Positions 44,693-54,125 are shown, numbered from the stretch's first letter. The stretch: DNA of 64,000 nucleotides from Candidatus Hydrogenedentota bacterium (GCA_045863295.1 BTWA01000001.1:1-64000); one strand, 5' to 3'. Numbers and translations are program-made. The notes: generated from the sequence alone by a model not told the origin.

Positions 44693-47600
44693 ATGCAGTT
44701 TCTGAAGAATGGACCAGACGTTCCTGATCGACTGCTTCAAGATCACGAAGAAGGAAGAGTCGTCTTTTTCTGTGGTGCTGGAATTTCCTACCCGGCCGGA
44801 CTGCGAGGATTTAATTGGCTTGTTGACGAAGTGTATGGCCATTTCAACATCGTGCCCAACTCAGTTCAGGAGGCCGCAAGAAAATCGGGTAGATTCGATA
44901 TGGCAATTGGCTTATTGGAGTCGGAAGTACCTGGGGGCAGGTTAGCGGTACGGGAGGCTATCAGAAATTTCCTATTGCCAAAGTCGCTTAATCGGAAAGC
45001 CACTGAGACTCACCAAGCGCTGCTCACTTTGAGCAAGAACCGCGGCGGTGAATATCGGTTGATCACTACGAATTTCGACCGACTCTTCGAGGAATCAGCT
45101 TCACGGGATGGCCTAGAATTCGAGCGATTCGCGGCTCCAATGTTACCTATACCCAAACAAAAAAGAATCAACGGCCTAGTTTACCTTCACGGTTTGTTAC
45201 CAGCGACATCAGACACAAATGCGCTACAAAGACTGGTCATTTCGAGTGGAGATTTTGGGCTTGCGTACTTAACTGAACGTTGGGCCGCCCGGTTTGTTGG
45301 CGAGATTTTTCGTAATTTCACCGTTTGTTTTGTGGGATACAGCATAAATGATCCAGTACTTCGCTATATGATGGATGCTCTGGCCGCGGACAAGCTATTA
45401 GGCGAGGCGTCGCCTGAATTTTTCGCATTCGGCGAATATAAGATAGGTCACAGAGAAAAGGCGGAAAGCGAGTGGAAAGCGAAGAATGTTACCCCAATTC
45501 TCTATAAGTTGAATAAGGCACACTCGCTACTTCACAAAACGTTAAGCGAGTGGGCGCGTACGTATCGAGACGGGGTTCAGGGCAAGGAAAGAATTGTCTC
45601 ACAATATGCGTTGGCGATGCCGACATCCAGTACGGAGCAGGACGACTTTGTGGGGAGGATGTTGTGGGCAATAAGCGACCTGAGCGGCTCTCCTGCCAAG
45701 CATTTTGCCGAGTTTAAGCCTGCCCCGCCTCTGGATTGGCTTGAGTACTTCTATTTCAAGAGATATAGGCATGCTGATTTAATTAGATTTGGAGTTCGGC
45801 CTAATAATGACGTGGATGACAAATTAACCTTTAGCGTTGCGGAAAGACCTTGTCCATATGCTCTAGCGCCGTGGATGCGATTGCTAGGATCTGGCACTTC
45901 CGGCGCAAGTTGGGACAATATCCAACAAAACTTGGCGCGATGGCTTTCAAGGCATCTGGGAGACCCTCGATTGATTCTGTGGCTCACCAAGTATGGTGGC
46001 CACATACATCAAGAACTGGCGCGCACAATTCAGGCGGAACTTTCCAGGATTCAGAGGCTTCAGCAGAACGCGAACAGCGCTTCACTCCAGCAAATCTTGG
46101 ACGCATCTCCAAACGGAGTACCTGATGACCGTTTGTACTCAATTTGGAGAATGGTCTTGGACGGCCAAACAGCAGCCAACGGCAATCAGTTTGGTCTCTA
46201 CGATTGGTTTGGAAAATTGGCGCACAGTGGTTTGACTGCCAGCCTCCGTGTAGAGCTACGGAGGCTTCTGGCGCCGCGCGTGATGTTCAGGGCCGCATTT
46301 CATGTACCTGACAACAGTAACGCAACTCAAGGGAGGCCAGAAAAGGAAGAAATTGAATGGGACCTAGTACTGGCAACGAGACATGTTCATTCCACAATCA
46401 GTGACCATGGGAACGATGCGGCTTGGCTCAAAGTTATAGGTAACATTTATCCGGATATTTTTCCGCTACTACGAGACGCACTGGACTTGATGCGTGATCT
46501 TGGGGGGGCCGACGACAAATTCGACAGATCCTATATCGACCACCCTTCAATACCGAATCACCCTCAGAACCACAATTTTCATGATTGGACGGTATTGATA
46601 GTTCTTCTCCGAGACTCTTGGTGCGCCATTGCAAAGCAAGACATTGTACGAGCACGACGTTATGCCGAGGACTGGTTTGAAATGCCTTATCCACTATTTA
46701 AGCGACTCGCATTTTTTGCAGCGAGAAGCGAGAATGTAATTGAGAAAGAACAGGCTGTCGCGTGGATACTTTCTGACAACGGTTGGTGGCTCTGGTCAAC
46801 AGCTACTCAAAGAGAGGTTATTCGCTTACTGGCTTGGATTGGCGTCAGGCTTGAGCGGTCGGAATTGAAAAATCTGGAAAATGCGATATTGGCTGGACCC
46901 CCGAGGGAAATGTTCAAAGACGACCTTTCCGTTGAGGATTGGAATAGAATAATTGATAGGATAATTTGGCTGCGGTTAGCGAAGTTGGTAGACGCAGGAA
47001 CTCAACTTGGAACTGAAGCATTAGCCAAGTATAGAGAAATATCTGAAAGAAGATCTGAGTGGAGAATAGCTGAGGATGAACGTGACGAGTTTCCCTTTTG
47101 GCTAGGTGACGGTGATGACGGGCGAAGCTACACAGCTACTCCAATTCATCGACGAGAACTTGTGGAATGGCTAAAGCTAAATCAAACCGAAGACCATTGG
47201 GATGAAGACAATTGGCAAGAAAGGTGCAGACGAGAGTTCGGCACGACATTCTGTGCTCTCTATTCACTCTCTTGCGAAAGCCTTTGGATTGTTGATCGTT
47301 GGCGGCAGGCCATTAATGCTTGGTCAGAAGAGAGTCTGGCTTACCGGCGTTGGAGATGGGTTGGCCCCGTGCTGTGGAACGCTCCAGACGATATCCTGAT
47401 TTCGCTATCACCCGGTCTTAGTAGGTGGTTGAATCTTGTCGCAAAGAAAGGTGAGGGCGCGTCGGTTCCCTTGCTGGCCTTTTTAGCCAGAATGCTGCAT
47501 TTAGATTACGAAGAGAAAGGCGTACACAAAGATTACGTTACCCACGCCTTGAACCATCCACTCGGAAGGACAGTAGACGCGGTCATCAAGATGTGGTACC

Positions 47601-48481
47601 GCCAGGGGTTGCAAGATGACCAGTCCTTGACAAGTCCGTACCGCGAATGGTTCACAGAGATATGTGATACAAGCAACATTGCTTTTCGCAATGGCCGCGT
47701 ACATTTAGCCGTTCACACAATGACGCTTTTCCGAGTCGACGAGGATTGGTGTAAGAGCCGCTTCTTGCCTTTGTTTGACTGGAACGTAAACGAATTGGAG
47801 GCTACCGCTGTTTGGCAGGGGTTTCTTTGGTCTCCACGCATTCATCACCCATTACTGGAGGCATTTAAGCAGTCGTTCTTGGCATGTTCTCATCATTACA
47901 CGGAACTCGGAGACTTTGGTAGTCAATACGCAAGATTCCTTACCTATGTTGCCCTTGATTCGGCGGATGTGTTCTCAGAAGGCGATCTGCGTCTAGCATT
48001 TCGAGCTTTGCCGCCGCACGCAATTGCCATAGTTGCCGATACATTAGCGGAATCGCTTAAGAGTGCTGGTCCGCAAAAAGAACAACATTGGTCCAATCGA
48101 GTGTCGCCGTTCTTGAAGTCGGTTTGGCCGCAGGGAAACGAATACGCTACGAAGGACATCGTGGAGAGTTTAGCCGAACTCTGTATCGTAAGTGGTAAAA
48201 GTTTCCCCGAGGCTTTTGACCAGTTAAGGCACTGGCTGAAACCAATCAAGAATCTTCATGTTATCTGCGTGCTGCTCGTCAAGTCAGAATTGTGCAGTCG
48301 CCATCCTGCGGAGGCGTTGCAATTCTTGGCAAAGATTGTGGATCTAGAGGCTGACTGGCCACCTCAAGAGCTTGAGCAATGCCTCAATGAAATCGTGTCC
48401 GCGTCGCCAGAACTTCTTGATGCGCCCTCAGTTCGGCAAATTAGAGAGTATCTTCACCGGATGCGTGGCAGGCTCGCATAG
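44693..48481 (+). CDS. dsr1: Anti-phage defence-associated sirtuin, Dsr1-type (SIR2 NADase plus long helical C-terminus)
   Basis: MQF..NGPD.P..LLQ.HEEGRVVFFCGAGIS, TTNFD, YLHG, SSGDFGLAYLTERWAARFV, FVGYSINDP; 1262 aa; visibly lower GC. Confidence 0.88.
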   Translation: MQFLKNGPDVPDRLLQDHEEGRVVFFCGAGISYPAGLRGFNWLVDEVYGHFNIVPNSVQEAARKSGRFDMAIGLLESEVPGGRLAVREAIRNFLLPKSLNRKATETHQALLTLSKNRGGEYRLITTNFDRLFEESASRDGLEFERFAAPMLPIPKQKRINGLVYLHGLLPATSDTNALQRLVISSGDFGLAYLTERWAARFVGEIFRNFTVCFVGYSINDPVLRYMMDALAADKLLGEASPEFFAFGEYKIGHREKAESEWKAKNVTPILYKLNKAHSLLHKTLSEWARTYRDGVQGKERIVSQYALAMPTSSTEQDDFVGRMLWAISDLSGSPAKHFAEFKPAPPLDWLEYFYFKRYRHADLIRFGVRPNNDVDDKLTFSVAERPCPYALAPWMRLLGSGTSGASWDNIQQNLARWLSRHLGDPRLILWLTKYGGHIHQELARTIQAELSRIQRLQQNANSASLQQILDASPNGVPDDRLYSIWRMVLDGQTAANGNQFGLYDWFGKLAHSGLTASLRVELRRLLAPRVMFRAAFHVPDNSNATQGRPEKEEIEWDLVLATRHVHSTISDHGNDAAWLKVIGNIYPDIFPLLRDALDLMRDLGGADDKFDRSYIDHPSIPNHPQNHNFHDWTVLIVLLRDSWCAIAKQDIVRARRYAEDWFEMPYPLFKRLAFFAARSENVIEKEQAVAWILSDNGWWLWSTATQREVIRLLAWIGVRLERSELKNLENAILAGPPREMFKDDLSVEDWNRIIDRIIWLRLAKLVDAGTQLGTEALAKYREISERRSEWRIAEDERDEFPFWLGDGDDGRSYTATPIHRRELVEWLKLNQTEDHWDEDNWQERCRREFGTTFCALYSLSCESLWIVDRWRQAINAWSEESLAYRRWRWVGPVLWNAPDDILISLSPGLSRWLNLVAKKGEGASVPLLAFLARMLHLDYEEKGVHKDYVTHALNHPLGRTVDAVIKMWYRQGLQDDQSLTSPYREWFTEICDTSNIAFRNGRVHLAVHTMTLFRVDEDWCKSRFLPLFDWNVNELEATAVWQGFLWSPRIHHPLLEAFKQSFLACSHHYTELGDFGSQYARFLTYVALDSADVFSEGDLRLAFRALPPHAIAIVADTLAESLKSAGPQKEQHWSNRVSPFLKSVWPQGNEYATKDIVESLAELCIVSGKSFPEAFDQLRHWLKPIKNLHVICVLLVKSELCSRHPAEALQFLAKIVDLEADWPPQELEQCLNEIVSASPELLDAPSVRQIREYLHRMRGRLA

Positions 48482-48602: not shown

Positions 48603-48732
48603 CCAGTGGCTGGCTTCCGTGGTGGTTGGTTTCGCTTGGGTGCCGCTATTGGGCTGATGTGGGAGGAGTGGTGTGTCGCCTCATGTGCCTTCAGTGCAAC
48701 ACGCCGGGCTTGTTAATAGGAGGATAATTCCT

Positions 48733-49743
48733 ATGCCTAGCAAGCCGGAGTCGGCGTTTGATGTTTTGAAGGGGGCTTATTTGGCGGTGGAGCCGCATGT
48801 GAAGGCGCATTTGGATGCGGTGTGTGAGGCGCGGGGGAAGGAGTCTGTGCGGGTGACGCCGTTGGGTTCGCCTTGTTCGCGGGCATGGGATGACGAGTGG
48901 GTTGCGGTGGTGGAGGCGAAGGAGGCGGAACTGGCGCGGCGGATCTGCGGGGCGCGGTCGGTGTCGGGTGGGCCGTGCGAGTTGTCGCCTGACCATGCGA
49001 ATGGGCGTTGCCGGTTTCATGGCGGGTTTGATTTGTCGGGGGGGCAGCGGGGGAACCGGAATGCGGTGGTGCATGGGTTGTATGCGCGGCGGTTGATGGT
49101 ATGCGGGCCGCAGTGCGGGATGTGGGGGTCGTGTCCGGTGGCGTGTCCGGAAATCGAGGCAATGGCTCCGAAGGATCGGCCGGTGTGTCCGTTTGAGTTG
49201 GCGGAGTATAACGCGGCGTTGACGGATGGGTTGGCGGTTGCGGATGGCCGGGATATGACGAGTCCGTTGCATCAGCAGACGGCGCATGCGCTGGCGTTGC
49301 TGCAGGTGATGATGTCGCGGGCGATGGCTACGATGTCGCGGAACGGGTTGTCGCCTTTTTCGGGTGAACAGGGGGAGCAGGCAAACAACGCGATGCGTGC
49401 GTTGATGCGGATTTTTTGGGAGTACCGTCAGTTGCGGGGTTTGTTTCCGCCGTTGGGGGAGGACGAGGCGCCTAGCGAGACGAGCGCGGTGCAGCAGGCG
49501 ATGCGGATGGCGGTGGATACGGATTTGACGCCGGAAGGGCAGGGGGATTTGCAGTTTCCGGCGAATCCGCGCGCGGTGTTGCGGACGGGATTTATCAACC
49601 TGGATCCTGGGGCGGCGCTTCGCGGGCCGCGGCCGGATATGCAGGCAGTGATGCCGCGCTGGTCAAAGCAGCGGAAGGTGGAGGCTGAGAACGTGGACGA
49701 GGACGAGGCCGAGCGCGAGGAAGAGGAATTTGACCACGAATGA
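48733..49743 (+). CDS. HGGxSTG-like domain protein with extra Cys cluster
   Basis: CGARSVSGGPC...NGRCRFHGG...GNRNAVVHGLY, then CGPQC...CPVAC...CPFE; AGGAGG RBS. Confidence 0.7.
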   Translation: MPSKPESAFDVLKGAYLAVEPHVKAHLDAVCEARGKESVRVTPLGSPCSRAWDDEWVAVVEAKEAELARRICGARSVSGGPCELSPDHANGRCRFHGGFDLSGGQRGNRNAVVHGLYARRLMVCGPQCGMWGSCPVACPEIEAMAPKDRPVCPFELAEYNAALTDGLAVADGRDMTSPLHQQTAHALALLQVMMSRAMATMSRNGLSPFSGEQGEQANNAMRALMRIFWEYRQLRGLFPPLGEDEAPSETSAVQQAMRMAVDTDLTPEGQGDLQFPANPRAVLRTGFINLDPGAALRGPRPDMQAVMPRWSKQRKVEAENVDEDEAEREEEEFDHE

Positions 49744-50027: not shown

Positions 50028-50939
50028 TTATCCCCTCGGATGAAACGCTTTGTGGGCTTTGCTCAATCGATCCGTGCTGACGTGCGTGTAGATTTGCGTG
50101 GTGGCAATGTCGGCGTGGCCGAGCATTTCCTGCACGGCGCGCAAGTCGGCGCCGTTGTCGACGAGGTGCGTGGCGAACGAATGCCGCAGTGTGTGCGGCG
50201 TGACATTGCCGCGGACGTTCGCCTGTCGCGCGTAGCGTTTGACTACGCGCCATGCGCTCGTGCGGCCCATTGGCCCTTTGCGTTTCATGGAAAGAAAGAC
50301 CGTGTCGGCGCGCGTATCCATCTTCGTGCGTTGGCGGATCCAGGCGTTCAATGCTTTTACCGCCTCTTCTCCCAACGGCACGATGCGCGTCTTGGAGCCT
50401 TTTCCCGTGACGCGAACCGAACTCTCTTCCACCGATACATCGCGCAGGCGCAACGTGATGAGTTCGCTGATGCGGAGTCCGCACGAATAAAACAGTTCCA
50501 GCATTGCCGCATCGCGAACGCCTTCGGGAGTCGATCGATCCGGTGCGGCGATCATGCGATCCACTTCGCGGGTCGTCATGACATCGGGCAGGCCTTTCGT
50601 GATGCGCGGCGACTCGAACCCTTCGGTGGGGTCGCCTTTGGCGAGTCCCTCGTCGCGGACAAAGCGGTGAAACCGCCGGATAGCGCTCAAGTGCCGCATG
50701 GCCGAACGCGCGGACAAGCCCTCCTTACGCAGTGCGATGAGATGATCCAGCAAACGTTCGCGGGTTACCTGTCCGAGGTCGGTCACTCCGGCTTCGGCCA
50801 AGTGATTGAGATAGCGCTGTAAGTCGGCGGCATATGCGGCGAGTGTTTTTTCGGCCAGACCGGATTCGAAGACGGCGGCCTGCATAAACCGATCGAGGTA
50901 CGGCCCGAACGGGCTGGTGTTTTGGACATCCTTATCCAT
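50028..50939 (-). CDS. xerD: Site-specific tyrosine recombinase XerD
   Basis: TLAAYAADL, RDAAMLELFYSCGLRISEL, GKGSKTR, HTLRHSFATHL..GADLRAVQEMLGHADIATTQIYTHV. Confidence 0.9.
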   Translation of the reverse strand: MDKDVQNTSPFGPYLDRFMQAAVFESGLAEKTLAAYAADLQRYLNHLAEAGVTDLGQVTRERLLDHLIALRKEGLSARSAMRHLSAIRRFHRFVRDEGLAKGDPTEGFESPRITKGLPDVMTTREVDRMIAAPDRSTPEGVRDAAMLELFYSCGLRISELITLRLRDVSVEESSVRVTGKGSKTRIVPLGEEAVKALNAWIRQRTKMDTRADTVFLSMKRKGPMGRTSAWRVVKRYARQANVRGNVTPHTLRHSFATHLVDNGADLRAVQEMLGHADIATTQIYTHVSTDRLSKAHKAFHPRG

Positions 50940-51083
50940 GGGTGTATTGTACCAGATGTGTCAAGAATTTAGTATCGCCTCGTCTGGCAACCCTAATGAT
51001 TGAGTGTAATGCCCGACTCCCCGCTGGGTAAGGTGAATTGTCAGGAGTTTACGGCGCAACGAAGCGCATGGAGTAGCGACGGC

Positions 51084-51257
51084 ATGAGCAAGCCGAAAAC
51101 AATTTCAAAACCCAAGTCACTTTTTATCAAGGAGTTGGAAACGCCGCCCGCGTTGGCGGTGACTCAGGTCACGACTTTGGCGTTGGGCGAAGAGGGCGAT
51201 TCCAGTTTTCCCATTTCGCTGCCGGTGTTGGAGTATTTGAAGGGCAAAGCTGTTTAA
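51084..51257 (+). CDS. Graspetide (plesiocin-type omega-ester peptide) precursor
   Basis: MSKPKTISKPKSLFIKELETPPALAVTQVTTLALGEEGDSSFPISLPVLEYLKGKAV: LFIxxL leader plus TTxxxxEE core; GGAG upstream; 12 bp before the ATP-grasp gene. Confidence 0.82.
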   Translation: MSKPKTISKPKSLFIKELETPPALAVTQVTTLALGEEGDSSFPISLPVLEYLKGKAV

Positions 51258-51269
51258 CGGCGGCCACGG

Positions 51270-52178
51270 ATGGCGGCTGTACTGATACTGGGTTCGGAGA
51301 CGGACCCGCAAGTTGAACGGGCACGGAACGGCATACGGGCGCATGGCGGTCGGTCCTACTTGTGCGATACAACCACCCTTTCGGACCATACCTGCCTATC
51401 GATTCGCGATAACCGGGTTTATCTCGGATCGCGGACCATTCCCCCCATACAGTCCGTGTATTTGCGTGGGTTGGGCGTCAGCCCGCTTGCGCCTGAATGC
51501 CGTGACGATATGCGCAGGCGGCCTTACGGCCTCCTGGCTCAGGTAGACGAGCGCCGATCCCTGTTGGGGTCGGCGCTCAAGCTTTTGGAAGCGCGAGGGG
51601 TCCGAATCGTCAATACGATCGAGGCCAATGGGCTGCATGCGTTCAAACCGTACCAGCTTGCACGGATTGCTCAGGCCGGCGTGCCGGTGCCCCCCACACT
51701 GGCCAGCGCGGATCCCGGGCTGGTCCGGCAATTCGCGCATGCTCATGGGCGCGTGGTGTATAAACCCATTGGCGGAGGCGCATTGGTGCAACCGCTGACC
51801 GCGGCGGATCTTTCGCCCGAGCGGATCGAAGCGCTTGCGTTGGCGCCGGTGCTGTTTCAGAAATGGTGCGATGGCATTTCCCTCCGCGTATATGTGGCCG
51901 GACGCAAAGCCATTGCGGCGGCCGCGATTCACTCGACCGAACTCGACTACCGGCGCAAAGAAGACGCGGTGACTCCAATTCGCCTGACGGCGGATGAACG
52001 CCGCGCCGCCATTGCCGCCGCCAAGGCCTGCGGCATGCCCTTCACGGGGGTTGACCTGATCCGAATGAAGCGCGGCTTTGTCGTGCTGGAGTGCAACCCT
52101 TCGCCCATGTTCGCCGCGTTTGAAGACAAGACCGGCTTGGATGTTTCCGGGCCGTTGGCGCGTCTTCTGCTGGCCTGA
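51270..52178 (+). CDS. RimK-like ATP-grasp ligase, graspetide synthetase (PsnB-like)
   Basis: KPYQL, GVPVPPTL, VVYKPIGGG, PVLFQ, ELDYR, GVDL, VLECNPSP. Confidence 0.88.
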   Translation: MAAVLILGSETDPQVERARNGIRAHGGRSYLCDTTTLSDHTCLSIRDNRVYLGSRTIPPIQSVYLRGLGVSPLAPECRDDMRRRPYGLLAQVDERRSLLGSALKLLEARGVRIVNTIEANGLHAFKPYQLARIAQAGVPVPPTLASADPGLVRQFAHAHGRVVYKPIGGGALVQPLTAADLSPERIEALALAPVLFQKWCDGISLRVYVAGRKAIAAAAIHSTELDYRRKEDAVTPIRLTADERRAAIAAAKACGMPFTGVDLIRMKRGFVVLECNPSPMFAAFEDKTGLDVSGPLARLLLA

Positions 52179-52218
52179 GACGGGGTCCATGTGGTATTCT
52201 CGCGGTGGTTCAGTTACC

Positions 52219-52259
52219 CCGGACGAGACGCGCCGTACCCGGTCAAGACAAGACGACGC
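52219..52259 (+). ncRNA. Guanidine-III (ykkC-III) riboswitch
   Basis: CCGGACGAGACGCGCCGTACCCGGTCAAGACAAGACGACGC closely matches the ykkC-III pseudoknot pattern, directly upstream of an SMR/Gdx gene. Confidence 0.88.
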
Positions 52260-52290
52260 ACCTTAGACCCATGTGTTAAGGAGCGTTCTC

Positions 52291-52611
52291 ATGGCTTGGC
52301 TTATTTTGTTTTTGGCGGGTTTGTTGGAAACGGTCTGGGCGATTGGACTGAAATACACGCACGGGTTTACCCGTTTCTGGCCTAGCGTTTTCACCATTGC
52401 CGCAATCGCCGCCAGCATGTACCTGCTCGCTGTTGCGTCGCGATCGTTGCCGATCGGCACCGCCTACGCCGTGTGGGTCGGCATCGGCGCGGCAGGTACG
52501 GTTGTTCTCGGCGCATTCCTCTTGGGCGAGCCTTTGAACCTGCCCCGGGTGTTCTTTCTCGCGCTGCTGGGCATTTCCATCGCCGGACTGAAGCTAACCG
52601 CGGCTCACTAG
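52291..52611 (+). CDS. gdx: Guanidinium exporter Gdx (SugE), SMR family
   Basis: MAWLILFLAGLLETVWAIGLKY..GFTR, LPIGTAYAVWVGIG, GLKL. Confidence 0.93.
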   Translation: MAWLILFLAGLLETVWAIGLKYTHGFTRFWPSVFTIAAIAASMYLLAVASRSLPIGTAYAVWVGIGAAGTVVLGAFLLGEPLNLPRVFFLALLGISIAGLKLTAAH

Positions 52612-54125
52612 GCCGAAAGTGCCGCCTCGAACCGGTGTATCAAATCTTCGATGGGCTCCAAACCCACGGAGACCCGCACGAGATACGGTGACACGCCCAC
52701 AGACTCCACCCATTCGAGTTCCTGGTAATGGGCCAGCAGCGTGTATGGACAAGCCAGCGTAAACACCGTGCCCAAGCTGGGCCCTTTGGAGACGCGCAAC
52801 GCATCGTAAAACCGTGGCGCCGTGTTGGGTGCATCGTGCAACAAGAGAGAAAACAGGCCGCCGTACCCTGCCCCGTCCCGCATAACGGCCGCGTAGTTTT
52901 CCGGCGTGTCGTACTTCGGGTAGTAGATGCGCTGCACCTTGGGGTGTTTTCGGAGATGGTCGCACAGTGCTTCCGCGTTGGCGTTGATTTGCCGCATGCG
53001 ATCAGGAAAATCCCGCGAATTGGATTCCAAGGTGACGGCATCCTCCCACCAGAGCCGGTCTTCGTATTCGACGGCGTGGGCAGTCTTCAACTCATTGTAG
53101 AACGGCGAATTCGAGTTCAGTATCAACGCGCCGCCCATGACATCGATCGATCCCGAGAAGTACTTGGTCAGGCTGGTGATGATCACGTCCGCGTAAGGCA
53201 ACAAGTCCGCGTTAATATACGAGGCGACGGTCTCATCCACGACCAGCGGCACGCCTCGCTCACGCAATGCTCTCGACAGGCGCGGCAGTTCCGCGCATTG
53301 CAGCAACGGATTGGCTGCGTGCTCGCAAAACAGCGCGCCAAAGGATTCGTTGGCGAGCAGCCATTCCACCGATTCATGGCTCTTTGCACCAAAATCAGGG
53401 AAAAACTCACGGGAAGGACCCCATTTCGTTTGAATATGCAGAAGATCCACATACGGAAAGCCGAGCTGAATCGTACGGGCGCCAGGCCGGCGTTCCCTCG
53501 CGGTTATCAGCGCACCGTTCAAAGCGGCCATACCGGAAGGATATAGAAACACATTGTCCGCGACTTCACCCGTCAACGTGGCAATGCGTTCCCGCACAGT
53601 CTGCTTGGCTTCGCGGCCTTCCCCCCGATCCGCCCGTTCTTCCAGGGTGGCGAGGGCGAGCCGGGAACTGACGATGTCGCCGTAATGCTGCCAGAACTTC
53701 TTGGCCAAACCGACAGCCTCGGCCGGAAAGATGGCCACGAACACATGGTTAAGTCCATACGGCTCAATCCGGGCCTGAACACCCTGGGTTTCCGCCATGA
53801 ATTGCCTGCACCGGGTGGCAACGCGCTCGGACGGCAAAGCAATGCACAGTTCGTTGGGATTGGCAAACCGCTCCCTGCACCGGTAGAACAGGTCGTTGAC
53901 GATAGGGTTAAACACGAACCGGGGATAGCCGCAGGACAAAGCCTCCAACAGAATGGGGTCATTTTCCTCGTACCTGACGACATGTTCCCACCGTGGCAGG
54001 GCGACAGATACCGCGTGAGGCGAGTCCGGAATGGGTTTGCCCAAATCCGCTTCTCGCCAGAGGGGGGCCTTCCATAACTTGTTCACGGGGGTAAGGAACT
54101 CCTTGTATGGTCGCGTAGGGCGCAA
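52608..54125 (-). CDS. PLP-dependent Cys/Met metabolism enzyme, long cystathionine gamma-synthase type
   Basis: LGKPIPDSPHAVSVALPRW, GYPRF, YPSGMAA, VVDET, SLTKYFSG, KGPSLGT.FTLACPY, VRVSVGLE; start uncertain. Confidence 0.85.
   Translation of the reverse strand: MRPTRPYKEFLTPVNKLWKAPLWREADLGKPIPDSPHAVSVALPRWEHVVRYEENDPILLEALSCGYPRFVFNPIVNDLFYRCRERFANPNELCIALPSERVATRCRQFMAETQGVQARIEPYGLNHVFVAIFPAEAVGLAKKFWQHYGDIVSSRLALATLEERADRGEGREAKQTVRERIATLTGEVADNVFLYPSGMAALNGALITARERRPGARTIQLGFPYVDLLHIQTKWGPSREFFPDFGAKSHESVEWLLANESFGALFCEHAANPLLQCAELPRLSRALRERGVPLVVDETVASYINADLLPYADVIITSLTKYFSGSIDVMGGALILNSNSPFYNELKTAHAVEYEDRLWWEDAVTLESNSRDFPDRMRQINANAEALCDHLRKHPKVQRIYYPKYDTPENYAAVMRDGAGYGGLFSLLLHDAPNTAPRFYDALRVSKGPSLGTVFTLACPYTLLAHYQELEWVESVGVSPYLVRVSVGLEPIEDLIHRFEAALSA

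Follow-up and report, generated by a model that had tools for sequence, protein, structure and literature searches.

The window (the whole 64,000-nucleotide stretch of Candidatus Hydrogenedentota DNA that we analysed) contains two neighbouring plus-strand genes, a small open reading frame (ORF) whose full 57-residue product is MSKPKTISKPKSLFIKELETPPALAVTQVTTLALGEEGDSSFPISLPVLEYLKGKAV and, beginning 12 bp beyond its stop codon, a gene for an ATP-grasp enzyme of 302 residues; their features are collected in table 1. The small protein is laid out as MSKPKTISKPKS-LFIKELE-TPPALAVTQV-TTLALGEE-GDSSFPISLPVLEYLKGKAV, and a GGAG sequence lies about 10 nt 5' of its ATG. In A1, a 23-sequence precursor alignment made with MAFFT, residues L13, I15, L18, E19 and P21 of the leader region are invariant, as are T30, T31, E36 and E37 of the core, and G35 is nearly so; the window precursor has one copy of this core only. 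The elements from which the first-pass annotation had started, a 57-residue ORF with LFIKEL and then TTLALGEE, placed at that distance upstream of an ATP-grasp gene with an ELDYR motif (E224-L225-D226-Y227-R228), are all in place. Ligase and precursor are each single-copy in the window genome, and the GC content of the pair is that of the background. A promoter and terminator scan of 50800–52700 returned one promoter-like and three terminator-like sites, no excess over shuffled sequences.

Table 1. Features of the precursor–ligase pair, in window coordinates.
Feature	Position	Strand	Evidence and remarks
Precursor gene	51084..51257	+	57 aa + stop (ATG at 51084, TAA at 51255-51257); ORF list and raw sequence; homologues in 34/35 ligase-bearing genomes of the phylum
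Leader recognition motif L13-F14-I15-K16-E17-L18-E19, then conserved P21 and A24	51120..51140	+	Alignment A1
Single canonical core T30-T31-L32-A33-L34-G35-E36-E37 (TTxxxxEE)	51171..51194	+	Alignment A1
20-aa tail GDSSFPISLPVLEYLKGKAV	51195..51254	+	Unique in word search; end LKGKAV aligns with C-termini of relatives
Putative decayed second core I44-S45-L46-P47-V48-L49-E50-Y51	51213..51236	+	MAFFT placement; weak evidence
PsnB-like ATP-grasp macrocyclase gene	51270..52178	+	302 aa + stop; PDB 7DRM, E 1.5e-46, 162 bits
R206, equivalent of PsnB Arg213	51885..51887	+	7DRM alignment; invariant in ligase alignment A2
D226-Y227-R228, equivalent of PsnB DFR233-235 loop	51945..51953	+	D226 and R228 invariant, Y227 nearly so, in A2

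The region is matched at 99% or better by contigs from two sequencing runs, which belong to two further studies and are labelled as sludge metagenomes. The X3 contig covers 50950–51294 with 0 differences, and other contigs cover 50950–51176 and 51192–51449 with a single difference, 51428 A>G, which by our hand reading of the codon turns GGA into GGG and is synonymous. An assembly artefact is ruled out, because contigs from two independent studies agree with the sequence in this way. Two RNA-library contigs, also from two studies, cover 51357–51548 inside the ligase gene and give a weak hint that it is transcribed, DNA carry-over being possible; no RNA-library contig lies over the precursor gene.

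The solved structure closest to the ligase is 7DRM, one of the PsnB structures 7DRM–7DRP, which aligns with residues 3–302 of 302; the next matches are an MvdD-like protein and RimK (48 bits each), LysX (39), MdnC (22) and MdnB (20). Pfam RimK (PF08443) matches the C-terminal half at 47–48 bits. The top NCBIfam match is TIGR04187, a model of ATP-grasp ribosomal peptide maturases (GRASP_SAV_5884 maturase subfamily), at 91.8 bits, far below its cut-off of 350, and rimK_fam reaches 76.4 bits, below its cut-off of 143.4. The same genome encodes a separate true RimK that scores 193 bits against PF08443, versus 48 for the graspetide ligase. We placed the window ligase, 73 relatives and the genome's RimK in a quick maximum-likelihood tree (LG+G4, SH-aLRT support only), the relatives being those of 80 loci whose match covered more than 250 query residues, with 7 partial matches dropped. 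The genome's RimK sits on a branch of length 3.4 outside all 74 ligases, and the window ligase belongs to a Hydrogenedentota clade of 27 rows (SH-aLRT 98), inside which it falls in an 8-row subclade (98). Its nearest relative among 5.8 billion proteins is 58% identical. The affinity to PsnB rather than to RimK or LysX (162 bits versus less than 50) that the first-pass annotation had proposed is borne out by both scores and tree.

PsnB-like ligases also occur in haloarchaeal records (L065–L071 and L074; 39–46% identity by best segment), six of which form one clade in the ligase tree with SH-aLRT 100; at these loci no ORF within up to 2.5 kb of flank on each side unites a leader-like motif with TTxxxxEE.

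We mapped the residues of PsnB by hand on the 7DRM alignment, in which chain numbering is native numbering plus 20, an offset by which PsnB R213 and DFR233–235 coincide precisely with an R and a DFR of the chain. According to Song et al. (bioRxiv 10.1101/2021.03.09.434688), Arg213 brings the ring-forming Glu to ATP, the DFR loop is essential in PsnB, and Arg213, Arg72 and a D(F/W)R loop are conserved in graspetide ligases. The window ligase has R206 and D226-Y227-R228 at the corresponding places, and R66, nearly invariant in A2, at that of Arg72. The same authors describe Phe15 of the PsnA2 leader as sitting in a pocket of PsnB; the pocket residues Y171, I193, L196, V201 and F203 fall on Y164, I186, L189, V194 and F196, identical at 5 of 5 positions, and PsnB Arg192 falls on R185 and Arg181 on Q174. 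PsnB Arg101, which is described as contacting the outer-ring Glu and as conserved solely in Group 2a (Song et al., bioRxiv 10.1101/2021.03.09.434688), is replaced by Asp93; across Hydrogenedentota ligases this position is occupied by D, C, E or A, with an R or K two residues later. The ligase's handling of the outer ring may thus differ from that of PsnB. We call the enzyme PsnB-like on the strength of its sequence and, since Asp stands where Group 2a has Arg101, do not assert its membership of that subgroup.

We next consider how widely the two genes occur together. Of 135 genomes that the titles of their records assign to the phylum Hydrogenedentota, 35 carry a ligase homologue at E <= 1e-20, and a precursor is present in 34 of these, adjacent to the ligase in 30 and on another contig in 4. 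At 26 of the first 30 loci, the window's own included, the ORF directly upstream combines an L[FY]IxxLE leader with one or more TTxxxxEE cores; the remaining loci (L024, L026, L027 and L032) have no adjacent precursor, and a precursor profile found one on another contig in each of these genomes. Four of the other five genomes (G106, G072, G075 and G001) have the precursor next to the ligase, and in the fifth (G118, 96% complete) the ligase is present and the profile search detected no precursor. Chance does not account for the small ORF, since a homologous one lies directly upstream of the ligase in 30 of 35 related genomes. The 55 flanking ORFs in 15 related loci encode sulfatases, solute-binding proteins, hydrolases, regulators and others, with no recurring family among them in a Pfam scan; because the surroundings of the ligase vary among loci in this way, the two-gene pair is a conserved unit. 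The full-length likeness to PsnB, the retained key residues and the conserved pairing all uphold the earlier reading of the locus as a plesiocin-type (Group 2) graspetide precursor with its macrocyclase, and the co-occurrence in related genomes that this reading predicts is found.

Several records in this survey deserve separate mention. In genomes G111, G015, G033 and G099 (L034–L037) one precursor gene is on another contig, unlinked to the ligase, which has none beside it, and RiPP mining limited to the enzyme's surroundings would overlook such precursors. At L033 (G106:C10, ligase at about 373687–374585) the ligase frame shifts twice within about 100 nt (APVLFQELIEG / SVRVYVVGG / IHSTELDYRR) downstream of an intact two-core precursor, so that the gene is either a pseudogene or carries assembly indel errors. 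The ligases and precursors of L040, L049, L053, L056, L058 and L059, from records titled Nitrospiraceae, nest inside the Hydrogenedentota clade, and L049 is nearly identical to the Hydrogenedentota record L051; the submitters' taxon labels on these records are probably wrong.

The first-pass annotation regarded the locus as atypical on several counts, of which the 20-residue tail stands, being unique to this precursor, whereas the single core, the missing double-Gly site and the minimal cluster are normal for the clade. Canonical cores number two in 26 of the phylum's 34 precursors and one in the other 8, and single-core entries are already in the published dataset. No relative in the clade has a double-Gly site; a conserved ELE-x-P-A-x-A stretch follows the leader motif instead (A1). 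In three cyanobacterial relatives (L090, L110 and L118) the leader ends in Gly-Gly (PFDL...EA..V.GG) and is followed by 3–5 TTLALGEEGG repeats; the double-Gly leader type therefore exists in the family, not in the window's clade.

The earlier remark that no peptidase or ABC exporter adjoins the pair was accurate, a scan of 22 ORFs from 37.8 to 63.8 kb having found neither, and the locus has no gene for either leader removal or export. Transport genes in this neighbourhood are limited to an SMR/SugE gene, which lies 95 nt downstream, and genes for a sodium:solute symporter and for an ABC permease-type importer component. We considered the SugE gene as a part of the module and rejected it, as no SMR transporter is present among the 55 flanking ORFs of the 15 related loci. 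Group 2 graspetides often co-occur with NHLM-type transporters, a frequent and not a defining trait according to PMC13097080; an NHLM-type peptidase-transporter is absent both from the 22 window ORFs and from those 55. Downstream on the minus strand (52608–54125) lies a gene for a 505-residue PLP enzyme of the Cys/Met-metabolism family. Because its best NCBIfam match, BesB, reaches only 198 bits against a cut-off of 800, we regard it from its sequence as a distant relative of BesB (terminal-alkyne amino-acid pathway) and assign it no specificity; it is not conserved beside the ligase in other genomes. Upstream, a plus-strand gene at 44693–48481 encodes a 1262-residue protein that matches PADLOC Dsr1 (defence-associated sirtuin) along its full length, with a score of 1496 bits, and also matches Pfam SIR2_2. 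The gene is set in DNA of 48–50% GC, against about 58–62% in the surroundings, and its neighbours are a 356-residue ORF with no family match (48673–49743) and XerD (50028–50939, minus strand); the region looks like a defence island.

The tail is the one feature of the precursor that sets it apart, and a word search of 5.8 billion proteins with the window precursor returned only the precursor itself. The end of the tail, LKGKAV, falls on the xKGx/xKAV C-termini of relatives in A1, and MAFFT places I44, S45, L46, P47, V48, L49 and E50 on the T, T, L, A, I, G and E columns of the second core of two-core relatives. In the 8-row ligase subclade to which the window belongs, the precursors of the seven remaining members all have two cores. 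At the DNA level the putative remnant matches core 1 at 11 of 24 bases, where 6.3 ± 2.2 are expected by chance and 3.5% of offsets do as well; its sixth position has Leu for the nearly invariant Gly. A simple core score applied to 125 precursors did not pick ISLPVLEY and picked an artefactual tail 8-mer instead. Since the tail occupies the position of the second core and is bracketed phylogenetically by two-core relatives, with weak sequence similarity, it is most likely the decayed second core of an ancestor of this lineage rather than a new cross-linking module. A frameshift origin was rejected, the other two forward frames of 51150–51275 being without a TTxxxxEE remnant. The suggestion that Ser, Lys, Asp and Glu residues of the tail form extra links finds no support apart from the pair S45–E50, to which we return below.

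Taken together, these findings make it highly probable that the locus is a two-gene plesiocin-type (Group 2) graspetide module with a bicyclic product and a decayed second core in the tail. We model the route to this product on PsnB, for which Song et al. (bioRxiv 10.1101/2021.03.09.434688) report that the inner ring, T32–E37, forms before the outer one, T31–E38. The ribosome would produce the 57-residue precursor, and Phe14 of LFIKEL would dock the leader in the hydrophobic pocket of the ligase (Y164, I186, L189, V194 and F196, with R185). R206 would then present Glu36 to ATP for conversion into an acyl phosphate, which the hydroxyl of Thr31 would attack to close the inner lactone T31–E36, and Glu37 and Thr30 would subsequently form the outer lactone T30–E37. 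The result would be one hairpin-like bicyclic unit that has lost two waters (-36 Da).

By analogy, the predicted product is probably a serine-protease inhibitor, as had been suggested for this locus. Plesiocin inhibits elastase and chymotrypsin with Ki values of 16 nM and 7.5 nM, and its variant Psn-LLLR also gains trypsin inhibition (PMC10125368). From the name of that variant we infer that the third core residue, here Leu32, would set the specificity. Because inhibitors with more cyclised motifs are reported to be more potent (PMC13097080), a product with one core may be a weaker inhibitor.

How cores vary and decay elsewhere in the family bears on whether the tail could still be a substrate. 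The best 120 of 612 profile matches have two canonical cores in 109 cases, one in 8, three in 2 and five in 1, and 125 unique Hydrogenedentota-type precursors contain 240 TT..EE cores, 6 TS..EE and 1 IT..ED. Among 245 precursor-like proteins (P0112–P0356) with 1128 canonical cores, we collected variant cores, defined as keeping Gly6, missing exactly one ring residue and having a canonical core no more than 30 residues away. An outer residue (position 1 or 8) is lost in 41 distinct 8-mers (26 + 15) from 30 proteins and an inner residue (position 2 or 7) in 4 (1 + 3) from 4 proteins, so that, across the family, losses from the outer ring outnumber those from the inner ring about tenfold; binomial p values are 9e-9 for 8-mers and 6e-6 for proteins, both overstated by the non-independence of related sequences and repeats. 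The degenerate cores ITFKEGED, VTEALGEF and VITLAKGEE of the window's clade show the same outer-loss pattern. These counts hint at natural units with an inner ring only, that is, monocyclic ones; a literature search apparently yields no paper on natural monocyclic plesiocin-type cores, judging by titles and the starts of abstracts.

Acidobacteriota offer a further variation, in which tandem short single-core precursors (L087, L100, L111, L114 and L079) carry TTxxxxEE in a Cys-rich sequence, for example CKCC-x-P-TTMACCEE-x-C-x-x-CC; such sequences suggest that esters may be combined with disulfides or metal binding.

The strongest alternative to the preferred reading is that the tail is still processed, with S45 and E50 closed into a single lactone, which would give three esters (-54 Da) in one bicyclic and one monocyclic unit; we consider this possible but unlikely. 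S45 and E50 stand at core positions 2 and 7, the pair of the ring that PsnB is reported to make first, and Ser is natural at position 2 in six related precursors (TSLSIGEE, TSFSLGEE), although PMC10496146 is silent on the tolerance of Ser. The preferential loss of outer residues, by 41 distinct 8-mers to 4 and again in the three degenerate cores of the clade, would fit a surviving inner ring. Those counts, however, concern cores that have lost one residue and were required to keep Gly6, so that they exclude cores like ISLPVLEY, from which both outer residues are gone, in which Leu replaces the nearly invariant Gly of position 6 and Pro occupies position 4, and their p values are inflated by kinship. 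In another graspetide group with another core motif, one enzyme reportedly makes both monocyclic and bicyclic units, which would be a precedent for a three-ester product. The wider proposition, that the inner pair in the tail forms a lactone and that plesiocin-type precursors across phyla repeatedly evolve inner-ring-only cores, we hold to be similarly doubtful; if it were true, monocyclic units would be a design favoured by selection in nature rather than an intermediate.

It is still less probable that the whole module is decaying, having lost one core and now lacking a functional product. The second core is indeed unrecognisable, the end branch of the window ligase is rather long (0.59 versus a median of 0.27), and elsewhere in the clade the G106 ligase is broken by frame shifts and G118 has no detectable precursor. 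On the other hand, the reading frame of the window ligase is unbroken and retains all the key residues that we mapped, the precursor has a canonical leader and a canonical core 1, the one difference observed between populations is synonymous, and precursors with a single core and nothing else are known both from several relatives and from the published dataset. That the ATP-grasp gene encodes an amino-acid ligase of the RimK/LysX type and has no connection with the small ORF, as the Pfam domain name RimK and a rimK_fam score of 76 bits might suggest, can be dismissed, given that this score falls short of the 143-bit cut-off, that the match to PsnB reaches 162 bits and those to RimK structures 48, that the genome has its own RimK far outside the ligase clade, and that the small ORF accompanies the ligase in 34 of 35 genomes.

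We thus return to the reading of the locus as a plesiocin-type module with one canonical core and, most likely, a decayed second one. Little about it is new, as the enzyme type, the core chemistry and examples from the phylum are already catalogued. Such a very small two-gene, one-core system should nonetheless be practical for studies of PsnB-type enzymes, and with its natural tail one could learn whether a degenerate core is tolerated, or used, by enzymes of this type. The survey of related loci, with co-occurrence in 34 of 35 genomes, the precursor being on another contig in 4 of them, and a roughly tenfold excess of outer-ring loss, offers a rule that can be tested and applied when such precursors are engineered or interpreted.

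Among known systems, RimK and LysX, which are alpha-L-glutamate ligases, have in common with the window enzyme the ATP-grasp fold and a C-terminal half that matches Pfam RimK, at 39–48 bits only; to our knowledge neither has a precursor peptide partner. MdnB and MdnC (Group 1) belong to the same enzyme superfamily and likewise carry out leader-guided side-chain cyclisation, but they match at only 20–22 bits, and microviridin has the core TxRxPSDxDE, another topology and two ligases. The close counterpart is PsnA2/PsnB of Plesiocystis pacifica, which shares a full-length homologous ATP-grasp enzyme (162 bits), an LFIxxL-type leader with the key Phe, a TTxxxxEE core, Arg213, Arg72, the D(F/W)R loop (with Tyr for Phe/Trp here) and the leader pocket. 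The window pair differs from it in having one canonical core where plesiocin has four, the clade's ELExP-A-x-A stretch in place of Gly-Gly after the leader, Asp93 for Arg101, and the 20-residue tail; its ligase is about 32–36% identical to those of myxobacterial relatives. A further counterpart is the set of Hydrogenedentota entries, at least 18 of them, filed as graspetide Group 2 in a 2026 RODEO survey (PMC13097080); our literature search found no paper on graspetides in Hydrogenedentes. These entries belong to the same clade and have a K/R-rich N-terminus, an L[FY]IEELERP leader and the same cores; two of the survey's precursors are identical to those of L009 and L013, and single-core Group 2 entries among those listed are MBM3289736.1 and MCC6142581.1. 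The strings of the window precursor are not among the entries listed in supplementary file 2 of that survey, and none of the 18 Group 2 Hydrogenedentota entries listed in it has a comparable tail. The window pair is an ordinary further example of a catalogued plesiocin type, and the tail is its sole singular feature.
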